DNA from: Gammaproteobacteria bacterium
Lineage (GTDB): Bacteria > Pseudomonadota > Gammaproteobacteria > SZUA-140
Reading direction: 5' to 3'
Assembly: GCA_046754065.1 (NCBI GenBank)
Contig: JBHHVB010000007.1
Location: 6,881-70,880 of the forward strand
DNA length: 64,000 nucleotides
Position numbers and translations under genes: made by a program. This document shows, piece by piece, positions 27,865 to 61,168 of the stretch (the stretch's first letter is position 1; every line of letters starts with the position of its first letter). Under the pieces are notes generated by a model. It did no database searches. It was given only the letters and a program-made list of their open reading frames with translations, and was not told the origin of the DNA.

Positions 27865-28856
27865 TAGTTAATCGCCCCCGTAACAAAGGGATCGTTTTCT
27901 GCGAGAACATATTTTTCCAGCTCATCGACAGACGGCTCTGGAGATTCATCTGCATATTTAATTATCTCTTCTTCAATTTGTTTCAGTATACTCTTATCCA
28001 TCAGCTGATATTCTTCTGTAGTTAAATCTCCACTTTCAATCAAGCGATCCCTGAGAATATTGAGTGGATCACGATCTGACCATTCCTTCTCCTCATCTTT
28101 GGAGCGATAAGCGTTTGAATCAGACATCGAGTGCCCGCGATATCGATACGTCATGAGCTCCAGGAAATAAGGACCCTTGCCCGACCGAACATGATCAACT
28201 GCAATCTTTGCCGCGTCGTAAACAATTTCCACATCCTGTCCGTCAACCTGCGCTGACGGAATATCATATCCACTGACACGTTTGTACTGGTCAAGCACCG
28301 CGGTCGAACGTTCAATGCGGGTTCCAATACCATACAAATTGTTTTCGCAAACAAACATCACAGGTAGCTCCCATACCTTTGCCATATTCAGGGTTTCATG
28401 AAATGTGCCCTGATTGTTCGCAGCATCCCCGAGAAAGCAGATCGAGATATCATCTCCCCCTTTCATCTTGATGCCTTTGGCAATGCCAGCCGCTAATGGA
28501 AAAGGACCACCAACCAGCGAATACCCTCCCATGAATCGATGCTCAACGTCGAAAATATGCATGGATCCTCCACGTCCCTTGCTGGAGCCTGTTTCTTTTG
28601 CATAGAGCTCTGCCATGACCACTTTAGGATCTGAACCACATTTGATGGCATGTACATGGTCTCTATAACCGGTAATGACATAATCACGCCCAGGTCTTGC
28701 GGCCTCAAGTACGCCATGCGCACATGCCTCCTGCCCTGAGTACAAATGTAAAAAGCCACCGATTTTTCTTTCCACATACGCTTCATAACACCGCTCTTCA
28801 AATCGCCTGGCGAACAACATTTCATTCAGGAGACGTTTTCTGTCTGAAGTATTCAT
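27864..28856 (-). CDS. 2-oxo acid (pyruvate/acetoin-type) dehydrogenase E1 component alpha subunit (TPP-dependent)
   Basis: GFLHLYSGQEA and the TPP-binding motif GDAANNQGTFHETLNMAKVWELPVMFVCENNLYG. Confidence 0.88.
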   Translation of the reverse strand: MNTSDRKRLLNEMLFARRFEERCYEAYVERKIGGFLHLYSGQEACAHGVLEAARPGRDYVITGYRDHVHAIKCGSDPKVVMAELYAKETGSSKGRGGSMHIFDVEHRFMGGYSLVGGPFPLAAGIAKGIKMKGGDDISICFLGDAANNQGTFHETLNMAKVWELPVMFVCENNLYGIGTRIERSTAVLDQYKRVSGYDIPSAQVDGQDVEIVYDAAKIAVDHVRSGKGPYFLELMTYRYRGHSMSDSNAYRSKDEEKEWSDRDPLNILRDRLIESGDLTTEEYQLMDKSILKQIEEEIIKYADESPEPSVDELEKYVLAENDPFVTGAIN

Positions 28857-44313: not shown

Positions 44314-44852
44314 AACCCCCCTCAGATTTTGCGAACCCTGTTTTCTCTTGTTTGTCGTAGGTAACCCTGTACTATACAGCATTTTTTATAAATATTTATT
44401 TGGATTTTCTATGCCTTATAAATAGAGTCAACACAACTCTTCCCGAACCACTCTAAATCATGTCTCTATCCGTCCAGAGCTCTGGATAGACTCGTCAGCC
44501 ATTCGGCTTAAGATGACTTTCATCCTACCAATAGCAGTATCCATGCCACCCGAAAGTTACTGGCAAATATCGAAGCGCTAGTTGTTGTATATAATACAAA
44601 AAAAATCAACTTTCGCTTACCAGGACAGTTCATTAAGTAATAAAGGCAGCTCATGAAGTGTTAAAAGTATCGACACTTGCTGTTTGCAATCCAGGCTGTA
44701 AAAAATTACAGAGTTGTCGTATCACGTTAACAATCCCGTCATGTTCACAGGTCTAACGAGTGAACCCGGTTTAATCTACCAGTCGATATGCAGCTCGTTG
44801 TAGCCGCACCAATCAGATATTCTATTGACGACAGTTTATTGCCAAAGAAAGA

Positions 44853-45818
44853 CTAGCCTGCGGACGAGGCACTGCCAATACGATGATGAATCATTGCGAT
44901 ACCAATTGAGACGATAAGGCTTAGAATGAAGACCAGTGAAATGAGATGGTGTGAAGGTGAAATCTGCTTTTCCGGAACGACTGCAGGATCAATGACCTTA
45001 AATGAAAATTCACCCCTGGATTTTGCCAGCATAATGGTTTTTTGTTGCGCCTCAATTAATCGGTAAATTGCTTGCTGTATTTCCACGGAGCTGGTATTTT
45101 CCAACTGATCAGTTAGATATTTTATGCCTGTCTCCGATTCAAGTATTGTTTCCTCACGACGCTTTTCATTGACGCGTTCAACCAGTTTATTAGCCCATTC
45201 GGCCGCAATTTGGGGATCAGTCCAATCGATTGACAGGGTCACCAAACCAGTATTTCTATCCACATTGACTTTACGGATACGACTCGAGAACAAGTCATAT
45301 GCCTCTCGTTCGGTTGGAACCTCTGACAGATTTTTCCATCGCTTGTTATTCTCATCCCAGGCCTCTGAAAACAGTATTGGCATCAGATTTTCGTCTTTAA
45401 TGAATTGATCCGAGAGTTTTCTCGATTTCAATGCCGCAACCGCCTCTGCAGATGAATTATTCTTGAACATCGTATTGATACTGGCCAGGTCCTCAAGTCC
45501 GGAATACTGGGTAAAAAAAGAACCAAAGCCGGTACTCCTATTAGACTCAGTTGGCGCCAATAAAGTTTCAGCCCGATAAACCGGTTCCATCGTAACAAAA
45601 ACGATTGCTGCAACCAGTGAAGCAAGCAAAGAAAATATAAATATAAACGTTTTATATTTTTTAAGTACTTGCCAAATATCCAGCAAGTTTACTTCATCGC
45701 TGTCAGGGATGTTATTATCAGGGATATTCCGAGGTACACGAAAGGGTACTTCTTCCCGCAATCGTGAGACCGGGCTTTCCTCTTTATCTTTATCGACAAC
45801 CTTATACTCGGGAATCAT
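44853..45818 (-). CDS. Wzz/polysaccharide co-polymerase (chain-length determinant) family protein, short form
   Basis: N-terminal Wzz-like segment (EVNLLDIWQVLKKYKTFIFIFSLLASLVAAIVFVTMEPVYRAET) and a C-terminal TM segment. No kinase domain. Confidence 0.75.
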   Translation of the reverse strand: MIPEYKVVDKDKEESPVSRLREEVPFRVPRNIPDNNIPDSDEVNLLDIWQVLKKYKTFIFIFSLLASLVAAIVFVTMEPVYRAETLLAPTESNRSTGFGSFFTQYSGLEDLASINTMFKNNSSAEAVAALKSRKLSDQFIKDENLMPILFSEAWDENNKRWKNLSEVPTEREAYDLFSSRIRKVNVDRNTGLVTLSIDWTDPQIAAEWANKLVERVNEKRREETILESETGIKYLTDQLENTSSVEIQQAIYRLIEAQQKTIMLAKSRGEFSFKVIDPAVVPEKQISPSHHLISLVFILSLIVSIGIAMIHHRIGSASSAG

Positions 45819-45927: not shown

Positions 45928-48585
45928 CTAAAAAACGTTGATCGCTTTCAAACTCGCAACCGTGATTGCCAACTGATAAATAACCTGTGAAATATCAGTA
46001 TATAGCTTGAGCTGACTAACCCGATCCACCTTGGGGGGAACCACGATGATATCCCCTGGCCCAATGTCAATCCTTCCACCAAACCAGTTTTGAGTGACGC
46101 TCACTGCACCATTGGCATGTACTACGTAAATTGCACTTTTATTACCGTTTTCATTCACCCCACCACTCAGGCGAAGATAATCTTTCTTTTTATATTTAGC
46201 CTTATAAAGATGAGAGGTTGGATAATACACCTCCCCCAAAACCGTGACCTCTTCATATTTCTGGGGAATATACAATCGATCACCGGGTTGAACCGTTACA
46301 TCCAAATCATCATTTCCGTCTAATATGGCCTTTAGCTCGATGACCATCCTCCCGGTTGCTTTCGCTTTACTAATCTCCTCCAGTAACGTCTCTCCTTCTA
46401 TCAGGGCCTTAGGATCACTCATTTCCTCTGCTTCAGCGATTTTAATATCTCGCTGCAATTGTTTGGTCAGTTTTTTCAACTGTTCCTGTTCACGAAGCCT
46501 GATCGATTCCCTGACAAATATGGCACCATCAACAAATGCGCTTTTAGTGATACCACCAGCCCTTTTCAAAACGGAGGATAATTTTTCGCTTTTTGAAACC
46601 GGATATTTACCCGGAAAAACGATTTCACCTTCAATCTGAACAACGCCAATCTCATTCCAGTTCGGGAGGCGTTTTATCACGACCTGATCATATGGCGACA
46701 GTTGAATATTGGACGCATCGTCTTTCATTACTGCTGCGAGTTCTATATCCAAACGATTGTGCTCACGATACTCATTATCAACGTTTACAAACCTCGTCAA
46801 TTCTGCATTAAGCAGATATGCGCTGTCTAACAAACCACCGGCAGCAAATATCAAATCTCTTATGGTCATTCCTGATGTCAGTGGAAAATCTCCCGAATGG
46901 TGCACCATGCCCTCGATAGATACGACGTGAAGCGGTTTCTCCGGCGTAGCTATCGCACTCGCATTTTCAATCAGTGGTTTTAAATAAGCTCCTCTATCCC
47001 CAAGAATATCAAACACATGAATTTCATCTCCCGATTCCAGTCTTGTATTGTATTCACCCTCTGGGTTTGACCATGCCAACGAAAGATTTGTGCTTACTAA
47101 CTCATAGGCATTGTTCAGCGGGTTTATCCGTCTTATAAGCACATAACGACTGTCCGCATCAATCGCAAGGTCTTGCACCGACTTAATGACGTCCGTCAAA
47201 CGCATATCCTGATGCCATTGAACATTGCCCGGTCTAACCACATAGCCACTAACCTTTACAGTCGCCGCAAAATTATCCAGCACAGAAAACACACGGATAC
47301 TATCACCAGCTTTTAACTCAAATTTGCCAGCATCTTTTGTGGAAAGATCCACGTCCAAAACGACTCTTTCCCTATTATTTTCTATTCTCTTTAGCTGCAC
47401 TCGCCCGATAAATGCATCAGGCATCAAACCACCCGACAGGTTGAAGACCTCACTCAAGGTCTTTTCATTTTTAAGCTCGTATATTGCAGGACGCCGGACT
47501 TTCCCAGAAATTGAAACCTTATTTTTGGCCGGAGGAACGAAAATGACATCCCCGGGTTGAAGCCTTGCGTCCCCACTGGTGTCCCCATCGAGCAAAAGAT
47601 CGTACAAATCCAGTTCAGAGACCAGTGATCCATTTCTCTTAAGCTGTATCTGGCGCAGGCTTCCGATGGTTTTAACACCACCGCTGCTTAACAGCGCATT
47701 GGTCAACGTAGACAAACTACTAACCGTATAGGAACCAGGGTGATTTACCTCGCCCAAAACAAAAACCCGAATGGATCTCAGTTTACCCAGTGTCACCGAC
47801 GCCTTCACGCCGATCAGCTGGCGACTTACTCGTGATTCAATTTCACTTTGTAGCTGTTTAAACTCAAGCCCGGAAACGGATATCGGACCAATACTGGGAA
47901 ATAACAGTTGCCCATCGCGGTTGATTGGCAATTCATACTGAGCATTTTCCTTGCCAAATAGCTGGACAACAACCGTATCACCTGGACCTACGACATAATC
48001 AGTCGGAACCGGAATATTGGTGACAGGCGTAAATGTATCTGGCACTGCCAGAAACAGTTCATAACCGAACTCTTTCAGTTCCTGGTCAATCATCAATAAC
48101 TTCACCTTCACATCCAGACCGGAAAAAACAGGCTCAGCCATTAGTCGTGCGGCAGCTTCTTTTTCACTGAGTCCCGACAAGTGAAAACGGCCAAAATTTG
48201 GTATGTAGATTGTTCCTGACTTATCAAGAACAAATAATTTTTTTTCAGGAAGACGACGCAGGATTTCTTTTAAGTAATCGTCGTCTGTCTCATCGCTGAA
48301 TTGTAAAATAAGGGTATCACCCACATGCATACGCGGGATTCCCGTGTAGTCATCCGCATCCAGCCTGGAGGGGACGATTGATCTTTCTTCTGTATTTTCA
48401 ACTTGTGATTTTTGGTCGCTGATCTGGTGTTGATTAACCAGCATATGATTTTCTGGAGAGTTCGCATATTTTTTTAGCGCTGCAATGTCTTCCTGGGAAA
48501 TGGTCGGCACTTCTGCTAGCCCGATCGGGGCATAACAAATGAAGCCGATAACAGCGAATATATATAATTGCAGGAGTTTAATCAT
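45928..48585 (-). CDS. Polysaccharide export protein, Wza-like with N-terminal extension and multiple SLBB (beta-grasp) domains (885 aa)
   Basis: Signal peptide. Poly_export motif YVVGPGDTVVVQLFGKENAQYELPINRDGQLLFPSIGPISVSGLEFKQLQSEI. Then several repeated GD-x-[IVL]-x-[IV]-P-type SLBB units. Confidence 0.78.
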   Translation of the reverse strand: MIKLLQLYIFAVIGFICYAPIGLAEVPTISQEDIAALKKYANSPENHMLVNQHQISDQKSQVENTEERSIVPSRLDADDYTGIPRMHVGDTLILQFSDETDDDYLKEILRRLPEKKLFVLDKSGTIYIPNFGRFHLSGLSEKEAAARLMAEPVFSGLDVKVKLLMIDQELKEFGYELFLAVPDTFTPVTNIPVPTDYVVGPGDTVVVQLFGKENAQYELPINRDGQLLFPSIGPISVSGLEFKQLQSEIESRVSRQLIGVKASVTLGKLRSIRVFVLGEVNHPGSYTVSSLSTLTNALLSSGGVKTIGSLRQIQLKRNGSLVSELDLYDLLLDGDTSGDARLQPGDVIFVPPAKNKVSISGKVRRPAIYELKNEKTLSEVFNLSGGLMPDAFIGRVQLKRIENNRERVVLDVDLSTKDAGKFELKAGDSIRVFSVLDNFAATVKVSGYVVRPGNVQWHQDMRLTDVIKSVQDLAIDADSRYVLIRRINPLNNAYELVSTNLSLAWSNPEGEYNTRLESGDEIHVFDILGDRGAYLKPLIENASAIATPEKPLHVVSIEGMVHHSGDFPLTSGMTIRDLIFAAGGLLDSAYLLNAELTRFVNVDNEYREHNRLDIELAAVMKDDASNIQLSPYDQVVIKRLPNWNEIGVVQIEGEIVFPGKYPVSKSEKLSSVLKRAGGITKSAFVDGAIFVRESIRLREQEQLKKLTKQLQRDIKIAEAEEMSDPKALIEGETLLEEISKAKATGRMVIELKAILDGNDDLDVTVQPGDRLYIPQKYEEVTVLGEVYYPTSHLYKAKYKKKDYLRLSGGVNENGNKSAIYVVHANGAVSVTQNWFGGRIDIGPGDIIVVPPKVDRVSQLKLYTDISQVIYQLAITVASLKAINVF

Positions 48586-48685: not shown

Positions 48686-50788
48686 TCAATGATTGAAATC
48701 TGTTAAAAAGCCCTGGTCACGGCTACCAAGCCCCATCGGCCTTTCTATCAGTTGGTACAGGTCTCCAGGTGAAACAACCATTTGACCCACATCACGCGTC
48801 CATGGCGATAGGGACAGAAAAGCGCTTTCATGCGTATCCCTGGTTAGCATCGAACTCAAAGGAACATACATCAATACACCGTGATCCTGGTAAGGGTCTC
48901 CAGGCCTACCTGGCGACGTATTATCGTTTCCGTTAGTATGGGTATACCATGCTCCGACTTCGACACCCGAACGAAAACGCCGCTTCATCTCAATTCGCAT
49001 CCCTTCATCTTTGGCCAAAAAACGTCCGACTTTTGCTGAGAGGGTTATATCATAACGAGAAAACCGGTGATGCAATCCCGCAAATCCAGATATAACTGAA
49101 TAGTCCATCAGGCTAAAGGTATCCCCCGGCCTTCTTTGTTTTAATTGATCCAGAGTTAGATCAAAAGCCCAGCTTCCACCATCTTTTATATATAGTAGCT
49201 GCCCCCCGTAGCCAGCGAACATCGACTCATAATAGCCTGCCGAGGCTCTTGCAAATAACCGCCTATCAATATTCAGGTACTTATTAAGAATCAACCTATC
49301 CAACCTTAACCTGTTGTTTTCACTATTGTACCTGGCAATATCCGTTCTTACGTGGGGCAATAAACTATTTGATTCCTGAGTTACATCGCTCACGTCTTCA
49401 ATCAACGTTAATCGTAATGACGAATCTATAAACAATGAATTACCAATATTTTTGTGAACATCGAGTAGAGAGAAGGTATCATAATGAAATACTCCACTCG
49501 GATCGTTAAAGAAAAACTGCATATTAAATGGTTTAAAGCGGAAGGGGCTATATGCCTGAACATCTCCCGACAAATCCGGTTGATCTGCATCCATTAGAGT
49601 GCGGGACTTCCCCGGATCATCAAAATACAAACCTTCGTCACTATTCTCGACCTTGTTAGTCGAAGACTGAGGATCATAATGATCAAAAGCAACAAGATCG
49701 ATAAGCTCACTGGCATCAACGCCCCGAGCAACCTCTTGGGCAAATCTGGAAGGATCCGTGATTCTATATGTTGCAACTGAAATATCGTTCAGCGTATAGG
49801 TAATCACAATCTCCTCGATTTCCTTCGGAACCAGGTTAACCACCACCTTGGCCGCCCGTCCGACTGCTCTGCTCATCAAGCTTATTCTGTTGTGCGATAA
49901 AGATACGCTAACTTTATGATTAGAGACATTCACAATCACTCGACCAAACCCCCGGCGAACTAGCTCCAAATATAATTTATCCGTTAGATTTACCAATGAT
50001 CTGGAAGTTTTACCTACGGTACCTGGCTCTGACAAACTGGTAAATGATTCAGGTTCATCAATTTTTGGTACAAATTCCTTTTTCATCAGGGGCGCCCCCA
50101 CATAGATATTAAACCCCACTGTATGCGAATTCATTGAAAGCTGCGCACCGTACCAATCGCCAGTATACTCAACGCCGTACCCGAGTTTACGCCTATGATT
50201 TCCTACCTCCGATAACTCTGAATGTGGATCCGTTCTATAGTCATTGGCATCGTACTCCAGAAGGAACGCAAATCGCCTGTTTTTGAACGGCCTGTAACGA
50301 GCCCCACCAAAAAGGCCTTTTATTCGTTCCTTCCCGTATCCGATTGATACATCAAGGGCATTTAACTTTTTGTTCGCAACCACGTACGTGGTTGAAAAAA
50401 GCTGTGTTCCGGTAAAGTCCTGAATACCCACCGCTAACTGAGGCCAATATTTTTTTTCTCCGAATAAAAGTAACTTGGCATCAAATGCCTTGTCCTTTAA
50501 GTCTCCGAATGCGGTATTGGGCCCAAGACCAGGAACATTATCAATCTCGGTATATCGAGCTGATAGTTCCAGATAAGGTAAAACAGTTACGCTGCTCCAC
50601 AGCGCTCGATAGGGTTCAGCCATACTGACTCCTAGCATGAACTGACCATCGCTGCTTAGACGACCATCAGGCATATTGATCAAGCCTGACTGACCAATTA
50701 GCGACGGACCGGCAAAAGCTGAACTTGCATATAAGAAAATGGATACATGAAGTGAACGAAAGAAGCGAAAGCAGGCACTGACCATCAA
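48686..50788 (-). CDS. YjbH/GfcD-family outer-membrane exopolysaccharide protein
   Basis: 700 aa with a signal peptide. N-terminal GQSGLINMPDGRLSSDGQFMLGVS...PYLELSARYTEI resembles the conserved YjbH start (GGvGLlqtPtAR...). Size matches E. coli YjbH/GfcD (~698 aa). Confidence 0.65.
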   Translation of the reverse strand: MMVSACFRFFRSLHVSIFLYASSAFAGPSLIGQSGLINMPDGRLSSDGQFMLGVSMAEPYRALWSSVTVLPYLELSARYTEIDNVPGLGPNTAFGDLKDKAFDAKLLLFGEKKYWPQLAVGIQDFTGTQLFSTTYVVANKKLNALDVSIGYGKERIKGLFGGARYRPFKNRRFAFLLEYDANDYRTDPHSELSEVGNHRRKLGYGVEYTGDWYGAQLSMNSHTVGFNIYVGAPLMKKEFVPKIDEPESFTSLSEPGTVGKTSRSLVNLTDKLYLELVRRGFGRVIVNVSNHKVSVSLSHNRISLMSRAVGRAAKVVVNLVPKEIEEIVITYTLNDISVATYRITDPSRFAQEVARGVDASELIDLVAFDHYDPQSSTNKVENSDEGLYFDDPGKSRTLMDADQPDLSGDVQAYSPFRFKPFNMQFFFNDPSGVFHYDTFSLLDVHKNIGNSLFIDSSLRLTLIEDVSDVTQESNSLLPHVRTDIARYNSENNRLRLDRLILNKYLNIDRRLFARASAGYYESMFAGYGGQLLYIKDGGSWAFDLTLDQLKQRRPGDTFSLMDYSVISGFAGLHHRFSRYDITLSAKVGRFLAKDEGMRIEMKRRFRSGVEVGAWYTHTNGNDNTSPGRPGDPYQDHGVLMYVPLSSMLTRDTHESAFLSLSPWTRDVGQMVVSPGDLYQLIERPMGLGSRDQGFLTDFNH

Positions 50789-51350: not shown

Positions 51351-53444
51351 TTAATGATATGTATGCACTACTTTGGTTATCAAGTTGGCATTATCACGTT
51401 TTTCTACATTAAATTCCACCTGGCCATAATACGACTTCAACTCGTCACTATTAACCCTTTGTACCCTGACGTGAAAATCTGCACTACCGCTAGCGAAACC
51501 ACCCTGTATTTGCCAAACTATTTTACCTAGAAAAAATTCTCTTTTTTCTGTCGCAGCGAATAACGCACGATAATCTTTCATAACACCGACAAGACTATCA
51601 TGATCATCCGTCACAACATCGTGTGAAAACAACGAGATAAACCGCGCCAAATTGCCTTCCTCGTAAAAGGTAACGAAGTTATCAATCGTCACTTCTAACT
51701 CATCCCGTGTGAGTGCTGTTTGCACTTCAACGGTTTCAGAATTGCCTGAAGGCTCTACCGGGCTATCGCTGCTTCCCGGCACCAAAAAATCATCAACAGT
51801 AGAATTGTCAGGAATTTCGGCAAACTCTCTATTTGAAGCGAACTCATTAATACTGTTTTCAATCTCAGCGTCTACAAACGCATTCTGAACATCAGGCATA
51901 ATAGTCGAAGTATCTTGAGATTGCTCAGGTTGATTGGGCTGATCGAGTAGCGGCCCGGATACCATACTCATCTCGGCATCCTGTTGAGCCGTCAGATGAT
52001 TGACAGGCTGATCCGCCCCAGGAGTAAAACGTTCAGCATTCAGGTTGGCTGTACTGATGGGCTGCAGGACTGAGTCATCGCTTACCGAAGCAGGATTCTT
52101 GCCCGACTGGATATCCCCATTATTATCAATATTTTTTGCAAATTCATTATCTTCAAGCACATTTGGGATATCCGCGGCTGGCAGTTTTTCAACGTCAGCG
52201 GTGCTGGAAGCAGGACTAACTGAGATAGGTCCCGAATCTATCGGTGCCTCCGGCTCCACCAAATCATTATTGACCGTTTGGGATTCTTGTTCTGCCATAC
52301 CCACAGAAAGCGATGCATTAACCTCTGTTTCAACAACAGGTTCTTCTGTATCAACAGGCGGCAGATTTGCTAACTGGTCGCGGTCGATACGGTCAGATTG
52401 TACTATATCCGTCGGCGGGATTTGTTCATCATCACTGGATGAAAGCATCGTAAAACCAACATACAAAAGAATGATAGCTAATGCCGTAATCCCTCCCACC
52501 ATTACTGGTTTACTATTAGAGGGTTGTGAATATCTGTCACGTGCAGTGGCAGCCCGCGTCTTTTTTTGGCCACTGCCTTGATAATCCAGACTTTCCTTTT
52601 TCAATACAATCGTAACATCCGATTGCATATTACTTTGTTTTGGAGAGTCTTCTGAATAATTGCTTTTTTGTTCGCCGATATTATCCAATTTTGGCGGGAC
52701 GACATCATTAACGTCATTTACCGCGTCATATGCGCGGTCAATATTCCTCGCAACATATGATTTACCTATTGGCTTGATTTTTGGTTGGGAGCCGTAGTCT
52801 TGCTCCAGTTCATCGGAACTGTCTTTATGCGGATGATTCACTTGATCAACGAGACTTCCCCCCGGCGAGGATAATACTGACGCTGAAAAAGACACAACGG
52901 GTTTTTCGTTAATCTGCTCACTAGAAGACGCACCAAACCCGGTTGCTAGATTTGAAGCGGTTGATGGCCTACTAAAATCGATGCCCTGAGCACGTAATTT
53001 ATTGTCATATAATCGCTTCTTTTCCGGATCTCGCAAAATACTGTAAGCGCGGTTAAGACGCATAGCATATTCAGCATTCCATTCATCGGCCTTATCGGAT
53101 TTATCCAGGTGAAATAAATGCAGCAAAAGTTTGTAGTTTCGACTTACTTCCTGGAGGGACGCTCCAGGGAATAAGCCTAGCATTCGATACCAGTTACCCC
53201 GGCTTGATAACAGCACACGTTCTGCAAAAAAGGTGACGGCAGCCAGCAGTTCTGTAGGCGGAACATTCTTGAATTCTGGAGAAAGTAAAACAGAGGGTTT
53301 CTGCGAATTACCTGCTGCCAATTCGAGCAATAGATCCACATCTTGCGGCAAATCAACAGAAGAATCTGTTAAATAGTCGTATTGCGAAGGAGCGCGGAAG
53401 AAATCCAGCGCCAGCTGTAAAATATTCTGTATCATTATTACCAA
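51351..53444 (-). CDS. Membrane protein with cytoplasmic degenerate J domain (HLD instead of HPD), single TM, acidic disordered periplasmic linker and C-terminal NTF2/SnoaL-like domain
   Basis: WYRMLGLFPGASLQEVSRNYKLLLHLFHLDKSDKADEWNAEYAMRLNRAYSILRDPEKKRLYD aligns residue-for-residue with DnaJ J-domain helices II-IV except HPD->HLD. TM VMVGGITALAIILLYVGFTML. C-terminal LTRDELEVTIDNFVTFYEEGNLARFISLFSHDVV has an NTF2-like pattern. Confidence 0.65.
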   Translation of the reverse strand: MVIMIQNILQLALDFFRAPSQYDYLTDSSVDLPQDVDLLLELAAGNSQKPSVLLSPEFKNVPPTELLAAVTFFAERVLLSSRGNWYRMLGLFPGASLQEVSRNYKLLLHLFHLDKSDKADEWNAEYAMRLNRAYSILRDPEKKRLYDNKLRAQGIDFSRPSTASNLATGFGASSSEQINEKPVVSFSASVLSSPGGSLVDQVNHPHKDSSDELEQDYGSQPKIKPIGKSYVARNIDRAYDAVNDVNDVVPPKLDNIGEQKSNYSEDSPKQSNMQSDVTIVLKKESLDYQGSGQKKTRAATARDRYSQPSNSKPVMVGGITALAIILLYVGFTMLSSSDDEQIPPTDIVQSDRIDRDQLANLPPVDTEEPVVETEVNASLSVGMAEQESQTVNNDLVEPEAPIDSGPISVSPASSTADVEKLPAADIPNVLEDNEFAKNIDNNGDIQSGKNPASVSDDSVLQPISTANLNAERFTPGADQPVNHLTAQQDAEMSMVSGPLLDQPNQPEQSQDTSTIMPDVQNAFVDAEIENSINEFASNREFAEIPDNSTVDDFLVPGSSDSPVEPSGNSETVEVQTALTRDELEVTIDNFVTFYEEGNLARFISLFSHDVVTDDHDSLVGVMKDYRALFAATEKREFFLGKIVWQIQGGFASGSADFHVRVQRVNSDELKSYYGQVEFNVEKRDNANLITKVVHTYH

Positions 53445-54162
53445 ACATCCACGATGTAGCTTTCCAATATATTGTTTATCGGTAGTCTATCAAGAAATTT
53501 GAATAGAGAGGCACTATATTTAGGGTACTATTACCCGGATTTCAAAAATTCCAGGGGAAGCTAGCTAAATCCAGGCTATTGACGAAGTTATTCAGTCTTT
53601 TTGTTCACTTTCCGATCAGTCCAACACAAAGCTATTTCTTTTTCAAATAGTTCATTCTGAGCAATTATACTATAATTTTCATAAAGATACGAAAAACCAG
53701 GAAAAGTAGCCAAAATACGGCAAAAGTCAGAATGATGCGTGGACAACCCATGGGTGCTGGCAAAACCGTCTGATGCGGTTTTTGAATTAATACAGGAACG
53801 TCGATATAACCGGGCTAGTTCATCCGCACGGCATTCCCAAACAGCGAGCATACTGAATTTAGAAAATCTTCCAAAGCATATCAATAAACAGTTCCTTTTG
53901 CCGATAGTTTTACCTAATCAGGGAGATAAATTTGAAATAATGGCTTGAGTCCAGCTCACACAAAGAGTCCAAAACAAGTTTTTAGTCTCCCCCCGTTTTT
54001 AATATAGAATGCCAAACTGTGAAATAATTTCATATGCCACATTGATAAAAACGAAACTCTAAACCAGGTTAAGATGTTGAGTCTTTTCCGACAAAGTGAA
54101 GTCAGTATCTTTTTAGACTGCACAACAATTCGCACTGCCTAACTTTTAAAAAAGGAAAATCC

Positions 54163-56133
54163 TTGTCAATTTTCTCAATCAAACACCCATTAATTATCAA
54201 AACAATTTCGTTAATATTTGCGGTTGTTCTTCTGGCAATAATGTTGCTACAGTTTAGCAGCAATGAATCCGTAGGCCGCCTCGCCAAGTTTCCCAAACAA
54301 CCTTTCTCACTTGCTGAGTTTGGTCTTTTCGATATGGGGATAGCTGACATCAATGATGATTTATACCTGGATATCTATACAGTTAACCATTCGGGAACAC
54401 AGAGCCTTCTTGTTAATCAAAGCGGCAAAGGATTCGTTGAATCTTTCAACTCAATGGATTTAGATCAGGATCCTTCGTTTCCCGGTCTGGTCGTCAGCCC
54501 GGATAAACCTGAATTTGATAAACCTGGGCTTTATATATACTGGCATGGACCCAAACTGGTTGTAGAGGCATATAGCCTGGTTAGATCTGAACCGGTAAAA
54601 GGTAGCATAGAATTGTTATCTCCAACTGAAGATCATGCTGACCCGGTCGTAAAATTCTCAAAGCGAGAAACTGCACTGGATCATGGTATCAATAAAACAA
54701 GTATCTCCTTCACCTTTGAAAAAGATGGCGTTTTCGCCATCAAACCCCTTTTACATGCACTGCCTATCCAGTTTGATATTGATAAAAAAGTTGAACCCGA
54801 ATCAATTTTTATCGGGCATAAACACATAGCACCTGATTTCAATTTTTTCTCCATAAACATGCGTGATCGCCATGGCATGTCCTGGGCAGATCTAACCAAT
54901 GACGGAAACACCGATTTATTAATTACACGAGGCGGACAGAGAGGGTGGATGGTACGCATGGATGAGAATTACTGGGATGAACTGTTTATCAGCGATGGTA
55001 ATAAATTTCATGAAACTGGCAAATCCGCTTCGCTACTGAAGGATGGATGTTCAGGCAGAAAAATAGCGTTAGTTGACTATAACAACGATAACAATCTCGA
55101 GTTTTATATCGTGTGCGGCAAGGGTCGCTCCTACCAACCTAACAAACTGTTTGCTCAGCAAGCAGATGGTACCTATTTTGATATTGCCAGCCAGGTCGGG
55201 TTAGATATAGGCCAGGATGGTAATTTTATCTGGACAGATGCCGATGCAGATGGGGATCTGGATATGTTTTGGGTTGATCACCAGTCATTTTATATCTATC
55301 AAAATCAATCTGGACATTTTGAAAAATTTCATCTTGGAACCAACCCAGCCCAACGAGTAAGCGAAAAACTCACAATCGCCGATTTTGATAACGATGGTGA
55401 TTTTGATATTTTTTCAGCATCGCCCGGCGGAAATGTATTATGCATTAACACCGGGAGCACCTATGCGATCACGAATCCCGTGCAGTGGGGGTTGCCTGCC
55501 AAAAGTGCCGTCGCAAACTGGGTAGACTATGACAACGATGGATTAAAAGACATACACTTTATTCCGAACGGAATATACCGCAATCTTGGAAACGGGAGAT
55601 TCAAACGAACATCTATATTATCGTTACAAGAAAACAAATACTCTTCCCGGCGCCTATATAAATCGAGGGTTTCGTGGTTTGATATCGACAACGATGGTAC
55701 GCGCGATGCAGTCATTGCCATGGAATTCGGTTTAAACCAAGGATTCCCGGCTTCAATTCTGGCCAGACTTAATGGTGACAGCAATCGCCTGGGAGGATTA
55801 AGGTCATTCTGGGAAGCCGGTCTGTATAGGAATGATCATACCGTTAATAACTGGCTTCAAATAGACGTGACCGGACCTCCAGGAAACAAACCTGGCATAG
55901 GCGCTAAAGTGACTGTTGAAACCAGCAACTTCATCCAGGTTCAGCAAGTCGGGGAAAATGAGGGAGCACGATACTCCCAAGGTCACTACCGATTATATTT
56001 TGGTCTCGGGAAGATGCATGAAATAAAATCCATTACCGTCGACTGGCCTGATGGGCGAGCACAATCCATACAATCGCAACAGCCAAACCAGTTAATCACA
56101 ATTGACTGGGTTAACGCCGATAGTGCAGTATAG
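54163..56133 (+). CDS. CRTAC1-family protein (FG-GAP/VCBS repeats + ASPIC/UnbV C-terminal domain), paralogue 1
   Basis: FG-GAP-like Asp-rich repeats (DFDNDGDFDIF, DADGDLDMFWVD). C-terminal UnbV_ASPIC signature NNWLQIDVTGPPGNKPGIGAKVTVETSN...YRLYFGLGKMHEIKSITVDWPDGRAQ. TTG start with AAGGAAAA SD. Confidence 0.75.
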   Translation: MSIFSIKHPLIIKTISLIFAVVLLAIMLLQFSSNESVGRLAKFPKQPFSLAEFGLFDMGIADINDDLYLDIYTVNHSGTQSLLVNQSGKGFVESFNSMDLDQDPSFPGLVVSPDKPEFDKPGLYIYWHGPKLVVEAYSLVRSEPVKGSIELLSPTEDHADPVVKFSKRETALDHGINKTSISFTFEKDGVFAIKPLLHALPIQFDIDKKVEPESIFIGHKHIAPDFNFFSINMRDRHGMSWADLTNDGNTDLLITRGGQRGWMVRMDENYWDELFISDGNKFHETGKSASLLKDGCSGRKIALVDYNNDNNLEFYIVCGKGRSYQPNKLFAQQADGTYFDIASQVGLDIGQDGNFIWTDADADGDLDMFWVDHQSFYIYQNQSGHFEKFHLGTNPAQRVSEKLTIADFDNDGDFDIFSASPGGNVLCINTGSTYAITNPVQWGLPAKSAVANWVDYDNDGLKDIHFIPNGIYRNLGNGRFKRTSILSLQENKYSSRRLYKSRVSWFDIDNDGTRDAVIAMEFGLNQGFPASILARLNGDSNRLGGLRSFWEAGLYRNDHTVNNWLQIDVTGPPGNKPGIGAKVTVETSNFIQVQQVGENEGARYSQGHYRLYFGLGKMHEIKSITVDWPDGRAQSIQSQQPNQLITIDWVNADSAV

Positions 56134-56169: not shown

Positions 56170-57138
56170 TTGCTCCAATCAAATCAAAAAAACGACTTAG
56201 CCGCCGACCAAAAGCCTATTTTGGTGACTGGTTCACCTCGCTCGGGCACAACCTGGGTGGGGCAGATGTTGGCAAAAGATCATCGCCTATATTACGTTCA
56301 CGAACCGTTTAATCCGGCAAGCAAGTATGTAAAAAAACATTATAATCTCAGGCTCAATCAACATTTCATACACATTTGTGATGAAAACAGCCAACAATAT
56401 TACTCAGCGATCACAGATTTAATAAACGGCAAATATAACTTGCTAAATGCACTTACCTACGCGCGTTCTCTTCAGGATCTTAGATCCACCTTCAGGGAAT
56501 GGCGGCAGACCACCGTCCAAAAGAACAAGGGCATATTACCTCTAATCAAGGATCCGATTGCCCTGATGTCTGCGGAGTGGCTGTACAACAACTTTGATAT
56601 TCGCTGCGTGGTATTGATCAGACATCCAGCTGCGTTTGTTTCAAGCATGAAACGATTAAACTGGGTATCACACCCTGAAAACTGGGCACTGTCTCAACCC
56701 CTGCTTATCCGGGATTTTCTTAAGCCACTGGAATCAGAGATCAATGCACTTCGGACTGGTGAGCATGACATTATTGAACGGGCAGCATTAGCGTGGAAAA
56801 TCCACCATTTAGTGATTTCGAAATACTATGCCAAGCACGAAGACTGGATATTTCTGCGTCACGAAGATATATCGAAAACCCCAATGGATTCCTTTGAGAA
56901 ACTATATCACAGCCTGGGATTGACATTTAATAATGAGATTCGACAAATCATAAACGAGCATAGCAGCGAAACAAACCCTGACAGCTCGACTGGAAAAGAC
57001 AAACCCATCAGACTCAACAGCCAGCAAAATATTTCAAGCTGGAAAAAACGTTTGGCATCGGACGAAGTAGCCCGAATACGAGACAGCGTTGAAGATATTT
57101 CAACTCAGTTCTATTCGGATGACGACTGGCTTACCTAG
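56170..57138 (+). CDS. Sulfotransferase-family protein
   Basis: PAPS 5'-phosphosulfate-binding loop LVTGSPRSGTTWVGQML near the N-terminus. TTG start. Confidence 0.7.
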   Translation: MLQSNQKNDLAADQKPILVTGSPRSGTTWVGQMLAKDHRLYYVHEPFNPASKYVKKHYNLRLNQHFIHICDENSQQYYSAITDLINGKYNLLNALTYARSLQDLRSTFREWRQTTVQKNKGILPLIKDPIALMSAEWLYNNFDIRCVVLIRHPAAFVSSMKRLNWVSHPENWALSQPLLIRDFLKPLESEINALRTGEHDIIERAALAWKIHHLVISKYYAKHEDWIFLRHEDISKTPMDSFEKLYHSLGLTFNNEIRQIINEHSSETNPDSSTGKDKPIRLNSQQNISSWKKRLASDEVARIRDSVEDISTQFYSDDDWLT

Positions 57139-59144
57139 TCTATTTCTACCAGCCCACCACTTTCCGTTATTTTGACAATCTGGTCTGCACTGATATCTGT
57201 AAACTCTTGTTCCATTCCGCTCGGCCACCTGAGTTTTAATCTATCGATCTTTTCGTTAGAACCTAAACCAAAATGAAGCCGTTGAAAATTTTGTGCAATT
57301 CGATGATACCCACCACGTTGTTCTCTGACCTGCTTATGACCTCCGGCGTCAATCCAAACCGTTGCGCCTATACCGTCCCGATTAGATTCCTGCCCCTCAA
57401 GGTCTATTTCCAGCCAATGATTATTATTTCCCTTATTACGGTATAACTGATGCGGGCCGGCTGCTACAAAAGGCGAAGCGGGGTCCAGGCCATTGGTGAT
57501 AAAGAGATCCAGGAACCCGTCATGATCATAATCGGCTAACGCAACCACATCACCGCGCCCCAGATGACTACCTTCAGCCCCACCTGCATATTTTACCTCT
57601 TTAAAATTACCCGACCCGTCATTCTCTAATAACCGGTTAGGTATATTCTGTACTGGGCCGGAACAGACCAGGTACAGATCAATATCCTGATCATTGTCAA
57701 AGTCGCCTTCAGCGACCGAATGACAGGATGTATCGTTAGCCAACTCGTCTTTCATAGCTCGCCTTGCAAATTTACCACCTTCCCTGATCAACAGGACATC
57801 GGCACCTGTTTCTGCAAAAGGTCGAAATCCCTGCATCTGAATATTCTTTACAGGCTTCTCTGACTTGACGATAAAATCGACAAATGCACTCCTTGATGTA
57901 TTTCTTATTGTCCAGCTTTTTTTCTCTGTATCATAAAAGATCGCGACCCCCTTGTGCTTGACTGTTTCCGGAAATTCTGGACCATGGATGCTAACATCAT
58001 CATCAGATAGCCTGAATAACCTTTTTACCGGGTTACGCCCCTGATGGCCAAGAAATATGTTCGACAGTTTCAGGAAAGTAGGATGTATCTCTACGCTAAT
58101 ACTTCCGTCCGTTTGAAAGTCCACAGATTTGATTTGCCCGCCCCGGCGCCCCATCAATGATCCCCGAATCTCCTTATCTCCCAGCTGAACAACATCCGAC
58201 ACCAGGAATGGCCCTTTCGTTAAATACATATCAGATTGCCCATCACCGTTATAATCTGCAATCGCCACATCACTAACCGTATCAACAGAAGGAAAACCGG
58301 CAGCGGCAGTTTCTTCATTTAATTCATTTTCAACAAGAGAGAACAGCCTGGTCGGTGATGAAAAGAAGACGAGATCCAGCCGCTTGTCATCCAAAAGCCT
58401 GGTTAACTGCGCATGTTCCTGGTTTAAATCCATATGAAGCAGGCCCACATCTTCAAAATTCAGATCTAATGCGTTGTATAACATTGCCAAATAGTGGTCC
58501 GTAGTCGACCATTCTTCGTCTACGAATCCGATCTCATCATTCGCCGCGACAAACCTGGCCGCCTGTTGAATAAAAAGTGTTGACGAAGGCATACCCCGAC
58601 TTCGGTTCCGGGTATTGATTGCCAAAAGATCAAGCCGACCGTCATTGTTGGCATCAAGCCACAGCGGAGAACGGCCCAGACCTTTGACAGCCACACCCAG
58701 CGTCCTTGCACTTTCAATCAGCTTCCCCTGATCATTAACAAACAGGTGATTTCGCCCGCAACCAAAACACAAGGTTCCATCGTTATTGACCGTAGCGCCA
58801 ACAATCTCTACAAGGTCCTGGTCCCCATCATTATCAAAATCTGCCCATGCAGCGCCATGAGTATCAGCTTCAGGATTCTCATTCCATATATTGTCAATAA
58901 TGTTATCAAAAGTGCCATCTTGCTTATTCAGGTATAAACTCGGTTTGCTGTTATGATTCCCTACCCATAAATCTGGCCAGCGATCACCGTTAAAATCTCC
59001 CCACGCGGCACCATAACTCTGCCCGGCATGACCCATATTGACTTTTTCGGTGACCTCCTCAAACTGAATATCAGCGACAACCACTTCAGAAACCAGCAGC
59101 ATAGCAATAATCGCTGACAACCATTTCGTTGACATTAATTTCAT
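57135..59144 (-). CDS. CRTAC1-family protein (FG-GAP + ASPIC/UnbV), paralogue 2
   Basis: Signal peptide MKLMSTKWLSAIIAMLLVSEVVVA. Repeats WGDFNGDRWPDLWVGNH, WADFDNDGDQDLV. UnbV_ASPIC end NHWLEIDLEGQESNRDGIGATVWIDAGG...RLHFGLGSNEKIDRLKLRWPSG. About 50% identical to paralogue 3. Start uncertain (59144 vs 59216). Confidence 0.75.
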   Translation of the reverse strand: MKLMSTKWLSAIIAMLLVSEVVVADIQFEEVTEKVNMGHAGQSYGAAWGDFNGDRWPDLWVGNHNSKPSLYLNKQDGTFDNIIDNIWNENPEADTHGAAWADFDNDGDQDLVEIVGATVNNDGTLCFGCGRNHLFVNDQGKLIESARTLGVAVKGLGRSPLWLDANNDGRLDLLAINTRNRSRGMPSSTLFIQQAARFVAANDEIGFVDEEWSTTDHYLAMLYNALDLNFEDVGLLHMDLNQEHAQLTRLLDDKRLDLVFFSSPTRLFSLVENELNEETAAAGFPSVDTVSDVAIADYNGDGQSDMYLTKGPFLVSDVVQLGDKEIRGSLMGRRGGQIKSVDFQTDGSISVEIHPTFLKLSNIFLGHQGRNPVKRLFRLSDDDVSIHGPEFPETVKHKGVAIFYDTEKKSWTIRNTSRSAFVDFIVKSEKPVKNIQMQGFRPFAETGADVLLIREGGKFARRAMKDELANDTSCHSVAEGDFDNDQDIDLYLVCSGPVQNIPNRLLENDGSGNFKEVKYAGGAEGSHLGRGDVVALADYDHDGFLDLFITNGLDPASPFVAAGPHQLYRNKGNNNHWLEIDLEGQESNRDGIGATVWIDAGGHKQVREQRGGYHRIAQNFQRLHFGLGSNEKIDRLKLRWPSGMEQEFTDISADQIVKITESGGLVEID

Positions 59145-59236
59145 TACCTTTGTTTTGTACTTTCTGTTCATCGCCATACCCTGTAACTCAGCACCAACAT
59201 TAACGGCAAACCACAAAACGTGGTTAGCCTTCCAAT

Positions 59237-61168
59237 TCAGGATTCTTCATTAACAGTAAGAATCTGATTCGCGCTTATATTTCGCAATTCCTGCACTACA
59301 CCGCTTGGCCAGAAAATAGTTAACTTCTTTGCATTGACGTAATTTCCCAGCCCAAAATGCACGCGCATCGCGTCCTGGGAAAAACTGTGCATACCACCAT
59401 TGTTAACCCTGACCTGTCTGACTCCACCCGTTTCGAGTATTAACCTTGCCCCAATTCCATCTCGATTGGACTGTTTACCTACCAGGTCTATTTCAAGCCA
59501 GTGATTGGAATTACCCGCATTTCTGAATAATTGATGTGATCCTTCATTCGCAAAAGGAGGAGGACCGAAACCGTTGGTTACAAACAAATCCAGAAACCCG
59601 TCCTGATCAAAATCTGCCACCGAGACCTGATTTCCCCTACCAGACATACTTCCGGAGGCACCACCGGCTCGTGCTACCTTTACAAACCTACCCTGTCCAT
59701 CGTTTTCATATAACAGGTTTGGGTAATTTGATGTTGGTCCCGAGCAAACCAGATACAGATCGATATCCATATCATTGTCAAAATCCCCTGATGCGGCGGA
59801 TGCACACGCAGTAAAGTGGTCAACCAACCCCATTTGCCGCTGCTTGTAATCTCCATTTTCATTTAGCAGTAACACATCACTCAATGCACCATCAGATGGT
59901 TTAAAGCCTTTTGTCTCCACATAATCAATAAAATCAGTTGAAGAAACCCTGAAATTGATCATGCGCAGGGAACTGCCAAAACTCCACTCTCTTGATTTGG
60001 CGTCAAAACGAATCCAAGTTGCTAAATCTTTACGATTTTTAGAGGGTACTGGCCCAATCACAGCGGGATCACTGGGCGAGACCGTCACTGTTGAACTTGT
60101 CAATTCAACTTTTTTTGATCCAACAAACAGAATAGTTTTCTCATTCCGTCTTGGGTCGGATGGGTCCATCCAGGGAAGGTGTACGTCAAGGGTAATCTCT
60201 CCCTCACTTCGAAATAACACTGTTTTTGTCTGATTTTTCCTGTTTGCCAACTTTCCCTGTATATGCTGCCTATCTGTTTGCAGCACCGTCATCGCAGACT
60301 GCCTAGAACGAACCAGAAACCAGTCGAACACACCATCACCGTTAAAATCATTGATCGCTATATCCCTGATGGCGCGAATTTTGGGAAGTTTTATCTGACC
60401 CGTGATTTCCTCGTAATCATCCAACCCAATATTTATAATCCTCTCTGGATTGGTATAGGTTATTAACTCTATCCCTTCATGTTTGGATATGTCCGCGAGT
60501 TGAGCAAATTCATCCGCAACTTTTAGCCCAGGTGATTTTGCGGTACTTTTTTTTGTATTTTTGAAAATATCTACCATTTTACCCGAGGAGAATTTTCCAT
60601 CAATTGCCTGCAGGAATACATCCGTCGGTGCCTCTGCTCTATAGCGATTCATGAGCAAGGCATCAAGCAATCCATCAGCGTTATAATCCAGCCACAATGG
60701 TGTTCTACCTCTACCAAGAGGATAACTTAGTCCCACTTCCTCCGCCTTCTCAACCAGATTGCCCGATTCATTGACAAAATAATGATTGGGACTAACACCA
60801 TGCCCGGCCCCTCCACCCGTGACAACGAGCAAGTCCTGATCGCCATCATTATCAACGTCGGCCCATGACGCACCGTGGTAATCCAGCACAGGAGTTCCGT
60901 CCAGCAGCTCGCTGGCAATATCCCTAAAACGACCGTCACGTTGATTCAAGTAGAGGCTAGGTGCTATCCCATGGTGATTTGATACCCACAGGTCCGGCCA
61001 GCCATCGTTATTGAGATCACCCCAGGCAGAGGCTGCCGTGGGTAAACCGGATTTCATACCAGCCTTATTTGAAACATCCACGAATTGAATTTCGCAAAAA
61101 GACGTAAGGGGAATGACGAATAATAATAGTGCACCCGAAATTCGGGATAAAACGCTGCTATCAGTCAT
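59237..61168 (-). CDS. CRTAC1-family protein (FG-GAP + ASPIC/UnbV), paralogue 3
   Basis: Signal peptide. WGDLNNDGWPDLWVSNHHG, WADVDNDGDQDLLVVTGG. C-terminal NHWLEIDLVGKQSNRDGIGARLILETGG...RVHFGLGNYVNAKKLTIFWPSG. Confidence 0.75.
   Translation of the reverse strand: MTDSSVLSRISGALLLFVIPLTSFCEIQFVDVSNKAGMKSGLPTAASAWGDLNNDGWPDLWVSNHHGIAPSLYLNQRDGRFRDIASELLDGTPVLDYHGASWADVDNDGDQDLLVVTGGGAGHGVSPNHYFVNESGNLVEKAEEVGLSYPLGRGRTPLWLDYNADGLLDALLMNRYRAEAPTDVFLQAIDGKFSSGKMVDIFKNTKKSTAKSPGLKVADEFAQLADISKHEGIELITYTNPERIINIGLDDYEEITGQIKLPKIRAIRDIAINDFNGDGVFDWFLVRSRQSAMTVLQTDRQHIQGKLANRKNQTKTVLFRSEGEITLDVHLPWMDPSDPRRNEKTILFVGSKKVELTSSTVTVSPSDPAVIGPVPSKNRKDLATWIRFDAKSREWSFGSSLRMINFRVSSTDFIDYVETKGFKPSDGALSDVLLLNENGDYKQRQMGLVDHFTACASAASGDFDNDMDIDLYLVCSGPTSNYPNLLYENDGQGRFVKVARAGGASGSMSGRGNQVSVADFDQDGFLDLFVTNGFGPPPFANEGSHQLFRNAGNSNHWLEIDLVGKQSNRDGIGARLILETGGVRQVRVNNGGMHSFSQDAMRVHFGLGNYVNAKKLTIFWPSGVVQELRNISANQILTVNEES

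Follow-up and report, generated by a model that had tools for sequence, protein, structure and literature searches.

A stretch of 64,000 nucleotides (nt) from a Gammaproteobacteria bacterium (assembly GCA_046754065.1, contig JBHHVB010000007.1, positions 6,881 to 70,880), hereafter referred to as the window, carries on its reverse strand a J-like gene that is the first of six co-directional genes for exopolysaccharide (EPS) export. The gene product is a bitopic inner-membrane protein with a cytoplasmic J-like head and a periplasmic NTF2-like cone (Table 1). The open reading frame (ORF) can be read from a TTG codon, yielding 697 amino acids (aa), or from an ATG at 53435, three codons further on. 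The latter is the start in the public gene call, which gives a protein of 694 aa recorded as P0001, [quoted passage not shown]. The ATG is likely the true start, since the public gene call and the ortholog alignment agree on it.

The five genes that follow encode a small secreted protein, a YjbH/GfcD-family outer-membrane protein, a Wza-like OPX protein, a Wzz/GNVR chain-length-determinant (PCP) protein, and a priming sugar transferase, with gaps of 84-470 nt within the run. A 727-nt gap separates the J-like gene from a divergent gene upstream. The initial annotation, made from the DNA letters alone, had placed the gene at the head of an EPS export locus; this placement holds in the window, and the position is conserved in other genomes.

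Strong hydrophobicity is confined to a single segment of the protein, residues 313-335, where the 19-residue Kyte-Doolittle maximum reaches 2.2. Net charge is +5 over the 23 residues that precede this transmembrane (TM) helix and -5 over the 23 that follow, which, according to the positive-inside rule, indicates an N-in/C-out topology. The same topology follows from the relatives of the protein, whose heads (ATPase, receiver) are cytoplasmic domain types; ATPase and receiver domains are modules that work in the cytoplasm. The single TM helix and the location of the two domains on opposite sides of the membrane, both proposed initially, are therefore borne out, as is the long acidic periplasmic stretch, which extends over 240 aa with a net charge of -42 and includes 23 Pro and 40 Ser/Thr residues. 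The length and sequence of this tether differ between orthologs. The cytoplasmic linker, described earlier as a low-complexity segment of ~170 aa, comprises 162 aa and is mostly poorly conserved, but it is not uniformly of low complexity, because it holds a conserved motif (consensus SFIAxNIxRAY) in which I232 is invariant in nine orthologs. The N-terminal extension, the J-like core, the linker motif, and the NTF2-like domain are ~26-45% identical across orthologs, and these alignments indicate purifying selection on the module. Neither the whole protein nor its C-terminal domain is spanned by a Pfam or NCBIfam model, in agreement with the initial impression that the architecture corresponds to no named family.

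Residues 84-147 match the Pfam DnaJ family (PF00226) with E = 9.5e-10 and 38.9 bits against a gathering cutoff of 27.8, in keeping with the J domain first assigned to residues ~88-150. In the AlphaFold2 model, the J-like part consists of helices at residues 82-85, 94-113, 116-135, and 137-149, i.e., the four-helix J-domain fold, and Foldseek superimposes it on J domains such as 2och with a root-mean-square deviation of 1.9 Å and a TM-score of 0.88 (normalized to the target). HMMER aligns the query "fHLDks" on the "yHPDvn" of the solved J domains 9dyv and 4j7z, so that the earlier reading of the HPD tripeptide as HLD stands. Helix II is modeled straight through the HLD position, and the turn after it is of low confidence. 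The 83 residues that precede the J domain are no mere spacer. They form a conserved extension that is predicted to co-fold with the J-like domain into one compact helical globule, modeled with a predicted local distance difference test (pLDDT) score of 84.8 and a predicted TM-score (pTM) of 0.80. The extension has the motif ILxLxLxFxRxPxxxxxLxDxxxPLPxxIxxLLE, and the same block lies just before the J-like domain of ATPase-fused relatives. In a Foldseek search of the PDB, the J half alone finds matches and the N-terminal extension finds none.

Two hallmarks of J-domain proteins are absent: HPD, the tripeptide otherwise invariant in the loop between helices II and III, and the basic surface of helix II with which canonical J domains dock on Hsp70. 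HPD is kept in five of the 43 J-bearing relatives. The tripeptide of the closest full-architecture relatives is YFD, YLD, FFD, SLD, MLD, or CLD and that of the ATPase-fused clade is RQD or RQE, the histidine being swapped for Y, F, S, M, C, R, and other residues among relatives. The aspartate of HPD, the YRxLGL sequence of helix I, and the core residues of helices III and IV are conserved in the family, and the J-fold core (YRxLGL, INRAYSxLRD, KRxxYD) is kept across orthologs. The net charge of helix II is +1 in the window protein and +0.35 in the family mean, compared with +4 in DnaJ and +6 in CbpA, two sequences that make up the whole canonical set. No Hsp70 gene is found in the 473 kb formed by the window and the fetched loci. 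Judged from these sequences, the loss of HPD is ancient and family-wide. Because of this loss, the neutralized helix II, and the lack of a linked Hsp70 gene, the domain is J-like rather than a degenerate co-chaperone that should recover once HPD is restored; the name "J-like" is the most fitting since the J fold is present while both sequence hallmarks of a J-domain co-chaperone fail. Loss of the Hsp70-activating motif in J-like domains is known mostly from organelles, as in ARC6 and Pam16.

The C-terminal domain belongs to an unnamed NTF2-like family that has no Pfam family of its own. Taken alone, the window protein matches Pfam SnoaL_2 at noise level (E about 0.08-0.1; 13.7-14 bits against a cutoff of 27). 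In word-indexed searches, the full-length protein retrieved itself and nothing else, the word filter being overwhelmed by the low-complexity linkers, and neither the C-terminal domain alone nor a 36-sequence profile found anything. The family was recovered solely through an exhaustive phmmer search, which yielded 595 cluster representatives (clusters at 50% identity) at E <= 1e-3 and 266 at E <= 1e-10; the domain is C-terminal in nearly all of the matches listed. In a gap-poor alignment of 36 sequences, F, F, R, and W are invariant and Y, G, L, T, G, G, and I are nearly so. AlphaFold2, provided with this alignment, predicts an alpha+beta cone (pLDDT 96.5; pTM 0.88) with helices at domain positions 8-24, 27-31, and 46-58 and a short strand at 34-39 that is followed by five more strands.

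Foldseek matches this model to 626 PDB chains at E <= 1e-3. Among the best 50 of these, nearly all are NTF2-like or cystatin-like proteins, or designs derived from them, with TM-scores of mostly 0.6-0.87. The scores normalized to the query reach 0.83-0.87 against 3b8l, 3ef8, and 3soy (probability 1.0), and sequence identity to the enzymes among the best fold matches is 10-17%. Homologues exceed the Pfam cutoffs (P0024 with SnoaL_2 at 30.7 bits; P0017 with DUF4440 at 27.4 bits), SnoaL_2 is touched at E <= 1 by 26 of the 36 family members, and the family profile matches ketosteroid isomerase at E = 9e-5. On the strength of the predicted model, its Foldseek matches, the Pfam scores of the homologues, and the ketosteroid isomerase match, the NTF2/SnoaL-like fold put forward initially is confirmed. 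Thus, both a J-domain match and an NTF2-like match rise above noise and a TM helix lies between the two domains; the outcomes set beforehand as speaking against this description (no such match, or both domains on one side with no TM helix) did not occur.

The NTF2-like domain is found with four classes of heads: the N-terminal extension and J-like domain, as in the window protein; an AAA_22 ATPase followed by the extension and J-like domain; a response-regulator receiver; and a short form with its TM helix near residue 80. Of four long relatives scanned, three (P0004, P0010, and P0126) score 343-361 bits against TIGR03015, the model of an ExeA/GspA-like ATPase associated with XrtA/PEP-CTERM systems, the cutoff being 324.5 bits. 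At its N-terminus, the receiver class has kept the C-terminal end of the TIGR03015 model region. In addition, the ATPase fusions have, ahead of their J-like domain, a region that aligns with the N-terminal extension of the L003-L009 genes, and ortholog alignments show this block to be common to the window protein. These alignments indicate that the different heads are evolutionarily related. The periplasmic part also varies, since a RodZ_C domain or a second NTF2 copy can occur.

A near-full N-extension and J-like module is present in 46 of the 150 top family representatives, and the form lacking the ATPase is seen in at least 10 distinct loci. No AAA domain is detected in the window protein by Pfam or NCBIfam, and tblastn with the AAA part matches nothing in the window. 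By sequence comparison, the window protein is thus an ATPase-less form of a module that is elsewhere fused to the TIGR03015 ATPase. The public names of the relatives are "hypothetical" or "DnaJ domain-containing" and nothing else. A PEP-CTERM substrate was considered as an identity for the protein and rejected because it has no PEP-CTERM tail.

The initial annotation suggested looking for co-occurrence with YjbH and Wza genes in other genomes, and the cassette order does recur. A head-TM-NTF2 gene followed by genes for a small secreted protein, YjbH, and a Wza-like OPX of ~900 aa is found in 11 distinct loci, the order being read as far as the contigs reach (L015 and L017 stop inside YjbH). 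Wzz comes next in the seven loci with enough sequence. The loci with a J-like head and this order are the window, L003, L004, L005/L017, L006/L019, L015, and L016, and the cassette neighbors in related loci are ~39-57% identical to those of the window. The ATPase-fused P0004 (L027) and P0010 (L031) and the receiver-fused P0046 (L028), traced to their contigs, occupy the identical slot. The slot is therefore fixed while the head changes between J-like, TIGR03015 AAA ATPase plus J-like, and receiver.

Wherever the cassette occurs, a small secreted protein of 87-237 aa is encoded between the head-TM-NTF2 gene and YjbH. Its family is conserved in 10 other loci, including those of the ATPase- and receiver-fused relatives, and is characterized by a signal peptide, an AAAIG motif, and a hydrophobic segment rich in Ala and Gly, together with a run of poly-Gly and a tail rich in Ser/Thr whose last residue is in most cases His. 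Pfam YjbE matches one of five small proteins tried, weakly and below its cutoff (E = 0.013). The OPX protein of the window (45928-48585) is unusually long and has no detectable Wza_C helix; its homologues in related cassettes comprise 905-993 aa. The L027 cassette contains insertions between the YjbH and OPX genes (L027:16919-18722) and after the OPX gene (L027:21830-22444), made up of MarR/HTH and NusG-like genes and two HepT/nucleotidyltransferase toxin-antitoxin pairs.

A second cassette type, represented by L008 and L030, combines a short OPX, a PCP tyrosine kinase, and a J-TM-NTF2 gene, with Wzy_C and CpsB nearby, which extends the association to OPX/PCP export in general. The L030 member keeps HPD. 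Stand-alone proteins of ~200 aa with the same NTF2-like domain (E about 1e-26) are encoded 1.3-1.5 kb downstream of the J-TM-NTF2 gene of this cassette type (L007:4250-4912 and L008:7818-8447). Members also occur in other settings. The L009 member adjoins fn3 proteins and asparagine synthases, and the L010 member, in which both modules are matched at E about 1e-28, adjoins adhesins, a PIG-L deacetylase, and GGDEF genes. A short-class member with two cone domains and a TM helix near residue 80 (L029:9272-10921; "hypothetical protein [Kaarinaea lacus]") is encoded directly after a PpkA-like Ser/Thr kinase-FGE-sulfatase fusion in a type VI secretion system (T6SS) locus.

Table 1. Features of the J-like gene and its product, the export genes that follow it, and the small secreted proteins of related loci
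Feature	Position	Strand	Remarks
Whole ORF	51351-53444	-	697 aa from TTG at 53444; stop codon 51351-53
N-terminal extension	53196-53435	-	residues 4-83; five helices packing with the J-like domain (predicted)
J-like domain, cytoplasmic	52995-53195	-	residues 84-150; Pfam DnaJ and PDB J domains
H-L-D tripeptide at HPD position	53103-53111	-	residues 112-114
Cytoplasmic linker	52509-52994	-	residues 151-312 (162 aa)
Linker motif SYVARNIDRAY	52728-52760	-	ortholog alignment
Single TM helix	52440-52508	-	residues 313-335
Periplasmic acidic Pro/Ser/Thr-rich tether	51720-52439	-	residues 336-575 (240 aa)
NTF2-like cone domain, C-terminal, periplasmic	51354-51719	-	residues 576-697
Small secreted protein, 125 aa	50889-51266	-	signal peptide, AAAIG motif, co-conserved
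YjbH/GfcD-family outer-membrane protein	48686-50788	-	Pfam YjbH E = 1.8e-128, 430.7 bits
Wza-like OPX protein, 885 aa	45928-48585	-	Poly_export and 5-6 SLBB domains
Wzz/GNVR chain-length-determinant (PCP) protein without kinase domain	44853-45818	-	Pfam
Priming sugar transferase	42925-44382	-	CoA_binding_3 and Bac_transf
Small protein in J-like-head loci	L003:10525, L004:11954, L005:12034, L006:12122, L015:3666, L016:10540		
Small protein in other-head loci	L027:14152-14427, L028:12366-12779, L031:7891-8154		

The surroundings of the cassette in the window include several further genes. The 727-nt gap contains a doubtful ORF of 98 aa without a family match (53588-53884, reverse strand), which is annotated publicly as a gene. 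Divergent from the export genes lie three paralogous FG-GAP/ASPIC (UnbV) proteins and a sulfotransferase, encoded at 54163-56133 (+), 56170-57138 (+), 57135-59216 (-), and 59237-61168 (-). This group may mean that the polymer is sulfated or that matrix proteins accompany it. At 61991-63364 (+) lies the gene for a protein of 457 aa with an fn3 domain at its C-terminus, and homologues of this protein are found divergently upstream of the J-like gene in L009 (4284-5705), L016 (6090-7466), and L018 (2-1180).

Farther away, the gene at 18253-21177 (-) encodes a 974-aa DAHL-PAS-PAS-GGDEF-EAL protein, a sensor for cyclic-di-GMP turnover that could regulate matrix production. At 23711-26746 (-), one ORF of 1011 aa joins the E2 and E3 of a 2-oxoacid dehydrogenase. 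Its E2 part has lipoyl, E3-binding, and acyltransferase domains, and the E3 part, a dihydrolipoamide dehydrogenase with Pyr_redox_2 and dimerization domain, is complete. The genes for E1 alpha and E1 beta (26878-28856) lie upstream of this ORF. Such E2-E3 fusions are uncommon.

On the basis of architecture and gene order, the protein is proposed to span the inner membrane once as an accessory subunit of a polysaccharide export cassette of the YjbH/OPX type. Its constant end, the NTF2-like cone, would dock onto a periplasmic or outer-membrane component of the cassette or onto the polymer, with the small Gly/Ser/Thr-tailed protein, YjbH, OPX, and Wzz as candidate partners, whereas the cytoplasmic head would be a swappable input or docking end. 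The J-like head of the window protein may serve as a protein-interaction module and not as an Hsp70 activator, recruiting, for example, a separately encoded ATPase or a biosynthetic component. The long acidic tether could span the periplasm, and the protein would in this way link a cytoplasmic state, across the envelope, to how the export apparatus is assembled or gated. A non-chaperone subunit for trans-envelope coupling or regulation of the cassette is given an even chance of being the correct description. It is the best supported role because heads swap at a fixed genomic slot.

Every element that was observed in the initial annotation is thereby confirmed, and its interpretation is supported in part. 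It had suggested a regulatory or chaperone-like coupling role across the membrane. Head swapping favors the coupling or regulatory part, but the chaperone-like part is not supported, given the loss of HPD, the neutral helix II, and the lack of a linked Hsp70 gene.

As a ligand of the cone, the Gly/Ser/Thr...His tail of the small protein is an attractive candidate, although the chance that any one named partner is correct falls far short of even. A broader proposal is that these proteins constitute a previously unrecognized modular class of head-TM-NTF2 trans-envelope couplers for YjbH/GfcD and OPX export, in which the cone has a specific partner and the head drives channel assembly or gating. 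This proposal is tentative and somewhat doubtful. Under it, the C-terminal tail of the small protein would be the best candidate for capture by the cone, by analogy with ARC6 and PARC6, which take the tails of PDV proteins, and an AAA ATPase, a phospho-receiver, or an HPD-less J-like adaptor would drive the channel from the cytoplasm.

Several points weigh against the proposed coupling role. All members found come from metagenomes or uncultured genomes, and the mechanism derives from architecture and synteny, which leaves the partner and the direction of signaling as inferences. Promoter-like and terminator-like sites in the scan of the locus are no commoner than chance, and the putative operon is assigned from gene order, strand, and short gaps only. 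There is no stand-alone TIGR03015 ATPase in the window or in the fetched ortholog loci, which makes an ATPase partner acting in trans hypothetical. The five relatives that still carry HPD imply that a link to Hsp70 may be ancestral and possible for some members. Finally, the presence of the NTF2-like domain in T6SS (L029) and adhesin (L010) settings argues for a generic periplasmic module, the partner of which need not be YjbH or OPX.

Signaling from the outside in is unlikely. Under this reading, the ligand of the cone would be a small molecule, a fragment of the polymer, or an envelope cue; the head would sequester or release a cytoplasmic regulator in an anti-sigma-like manner, by which transcription of the locus would be controlled. 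In its favor, the protein is bitopic and exposes a fold of the ligand-binding type on the outer side, the gene is first in its locus with a regulatory-looking gap of 727 nt upstream, and one family member follows the PpkA-like sensor kinase of the T6SS locus. SnoaL-like domains are also common in sigma and anti-sigma systems. However, no conserved sigma factor or DNA-binding regulator adjoins the gene in the window or in the examined loci, for which reason an anti-sigma factor was rejected, and the AAA ATPase and receiver heads of the relatives take cytoplasmic inputs (ATP, phosphorylation). Since the heads take such inputs, control or assembly from the inside out fits better than inward signaling.

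The choice of fold matches raises the question of a tethered periplasmic enzyme, of the isomerase, dehydratase, or cyclase type, that acts on the polymer or a lipid-linked precursor and uses its J-like head for localization or oligomerization only. The best matches of the cone are indeed enzymes or enzyme-like NTF2 proteins (ketosteroid isomerase, scytalone dehydratase, LinA), and the invariant R and W and near-invariant Y and T could line a pocket. Yet the invariant F, F, R, and W (with Y, T, and several G) appear unlike the catalytic sets of those enzymes, which are Tyr/Asp/Asp or Asp/His, and the identity to them is the 10-17% given above. Tandem copies of the domain and its occurrence in non-polysaccharide loci fit a binding module better, and family members show weak Pfam matches of the VirB8/TcpC/Tim44/MecA_N type. 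The NTF2 cones of envelope proteins such as VirB8, TcpC, Tim44, and MecA_N are usually non-catalytic. An enzymatic role is accordingly considered quite improbable.

The protein could also be a DjlA-like membrane co-chaperone that recruits DnaK to fold or remodel a cytoplasmic component or regulator of the polysaccharide machinery, with HLD being functional or compensated. The J fold scores above the Pfam cutoff, the aspartate of HPD, YRxLGL, and the core of helices III and IV are conserved, and HPD itself persists in five relatives; moreover, DjlA, a membrane J protein, induces capsule synthesis via DnaK (PMC11709261). Nonetheless, the single substitution H233Q abolishes both the co-chaperone activity of DjlA and its induction of Rcs (PMC11709261), whereas here P is replaced by L, and in close relatives even H gives way to Y, F, S, M, or C. 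Helix II has no basic face and is modeled through the tripeptide, no Hsp70 gene is linked, and ARC6 demonstrates that an HPD-less J-like domain can work without Hsp70 (PMC12232670). There is thus very little probability that the window protein acts in this manner.

That the gene is a decaying, functionless remnant of an ATPase-fusion gene minus its AAA domain is scarcely credible. The missing ATPase of its relatives, the degenerate HPD, and the length and poor conservation of the linkers speak for it. Against it, the ORF of 697 codons is unbroken, at least 10 distinct loci have the ATPase-less form with three conserved blocks at 26-45% identity and invariant residues, and both structured domains are modeled with high confidence; a pseudogene was rejected on account of this conservation.

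The coordination of Wzx/Wzy-type export across two membranes and the role of the YjbH/GfcD family are still poorly understood (PMC9603273). The exchange of ATPase, receiver, and J-like heads marks the head-TM-NTF2 protein as a candidate control or assembly element for this export route and poses a testable question. If the coupler proposal is true, the YjbH/GfcD double-barrel systems would gain an inner-membrane control element, and a bacterial case of the J fold reused as a non-chaperone adaptor would be added. The analysis also provides a first functional context for three groups: the unnamed NTF2-like periplasmic family with its 595 cluster representatives, the C-terminal extension of the uncharacterized TIGR03015 PEP-CTERM-associated ATPase, and a bacterial J-like clade devoid of the Hsp70-activating motif. 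The searchable literature yielded no prior account of proteins with a J or DnaJ domain in EPS, PEP-CTERM, or polysaccharide export clusters, and the Haft 2006 PEP-CTERM paper does not mention the TIGR03015 ATPase. The domain kinds of the parts and precedents for the proposed logic are already known; the architecture, the family, the link to TIGR03015, and the swapping of heads at a fixed YjbH/OPX slot are new.

With regard to known systems, the locus is comparable to yjbEFGH and gfcABCDE (group 4 capsule) of E. coli, in which a YjbH/GfcD-family protein likewise stands beside an OPX protein (PMC9603273). The small secreted protein encoded ahead of YjbH in the window resembles YjbE/GfcA in its C-terminal part, which is rich in Gly and Ser/Thr, but the Pfam YjbE match is weak and confined to one of the five proteins tried. 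The E. coli loci have no J-like/NTF2 membrane protein, and in the window the small ORF is followed by YjbH with neither a YjbF/GfcB-like nor a YjbG/GfcC-like gene in between.

DjlA shares with the window protein a membrane anchor, a cytoplasmic J-type domain, and a connection to capsule or exopolysaccharide, as it induces the colanic acid capsule of E. coli through the Rcs phosphorelay (PMC11709261). It consists of an N-terminal TM helix, a TerB-like middle part, and a C-terminal J domain with an essential HPD (PMC11709261), and it has no sizeable periplasmic domain, acts on Rcs signaling proteins, and is encoded outside the export locus. In the window protein, by contrast, the domain order is reversed, no TerB match is detected, and HPD is absent.

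Some TIGR03015 ATPases have the same N-extension, J-like domain, TM helix, and NTF2-like extension in the same genomic slot. The shared extension is carried by some members and is no defining feature of the family model, whereas the defining AAA domain is lacking in the window protein. As a hypothetical equivalog in NCBIfam, TIGR03015 gives no function to transfer.

In ARC6, a chloroplast protein with one TM helix, the J-like domain lacks HPD, shows no binding to Hsp70, and modulates how partners are bound (PMC12232670, PMC9945983). The C-terminal pocket of ARC6/PARC6 takes the C-terminal tail of an outer-envelope protein and couples two membranes in this manner (PMC12232670, PMC9945983). The window protein parallels ARC6 and cyanobacterial Ftn2-ZipN in having an HPD-less J-like domain inside, a single TM helix, and a compact C-terminal domain across the membrane, but its context is polysaccharide export and not cell division. 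No ARC6/PARC6 chain occurs among the best 60 of the 103 PDB sequences matched by the family profile (E <= 10), nor does an ARC6-type Pfam family occur among the 25 listed of the 38 families matched by 36 members (E <= 1).

ExeA, together with ExeB, is needed for assembly of the secretin in type II secretion (PMC4098917). Like the window protein, the ExeA-ExeB (GspA-GspB) system connects a head in the cytoplasm through one TM helix to a binding domain in the periplasm, a likeness that is a functional analogy only. The head of ExeA is an ATPase and not a J-like domain, and its periplasmic domain binds peptidoglycan and is no NTF2 cone. Its target is a secretin, while the proposed target here is a polysaccharide channel (YjbH/OPX). 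With no detectable homology in the defining parts of either system, the window protein resembles ARC6 in its architecture and ExeA in its logic.

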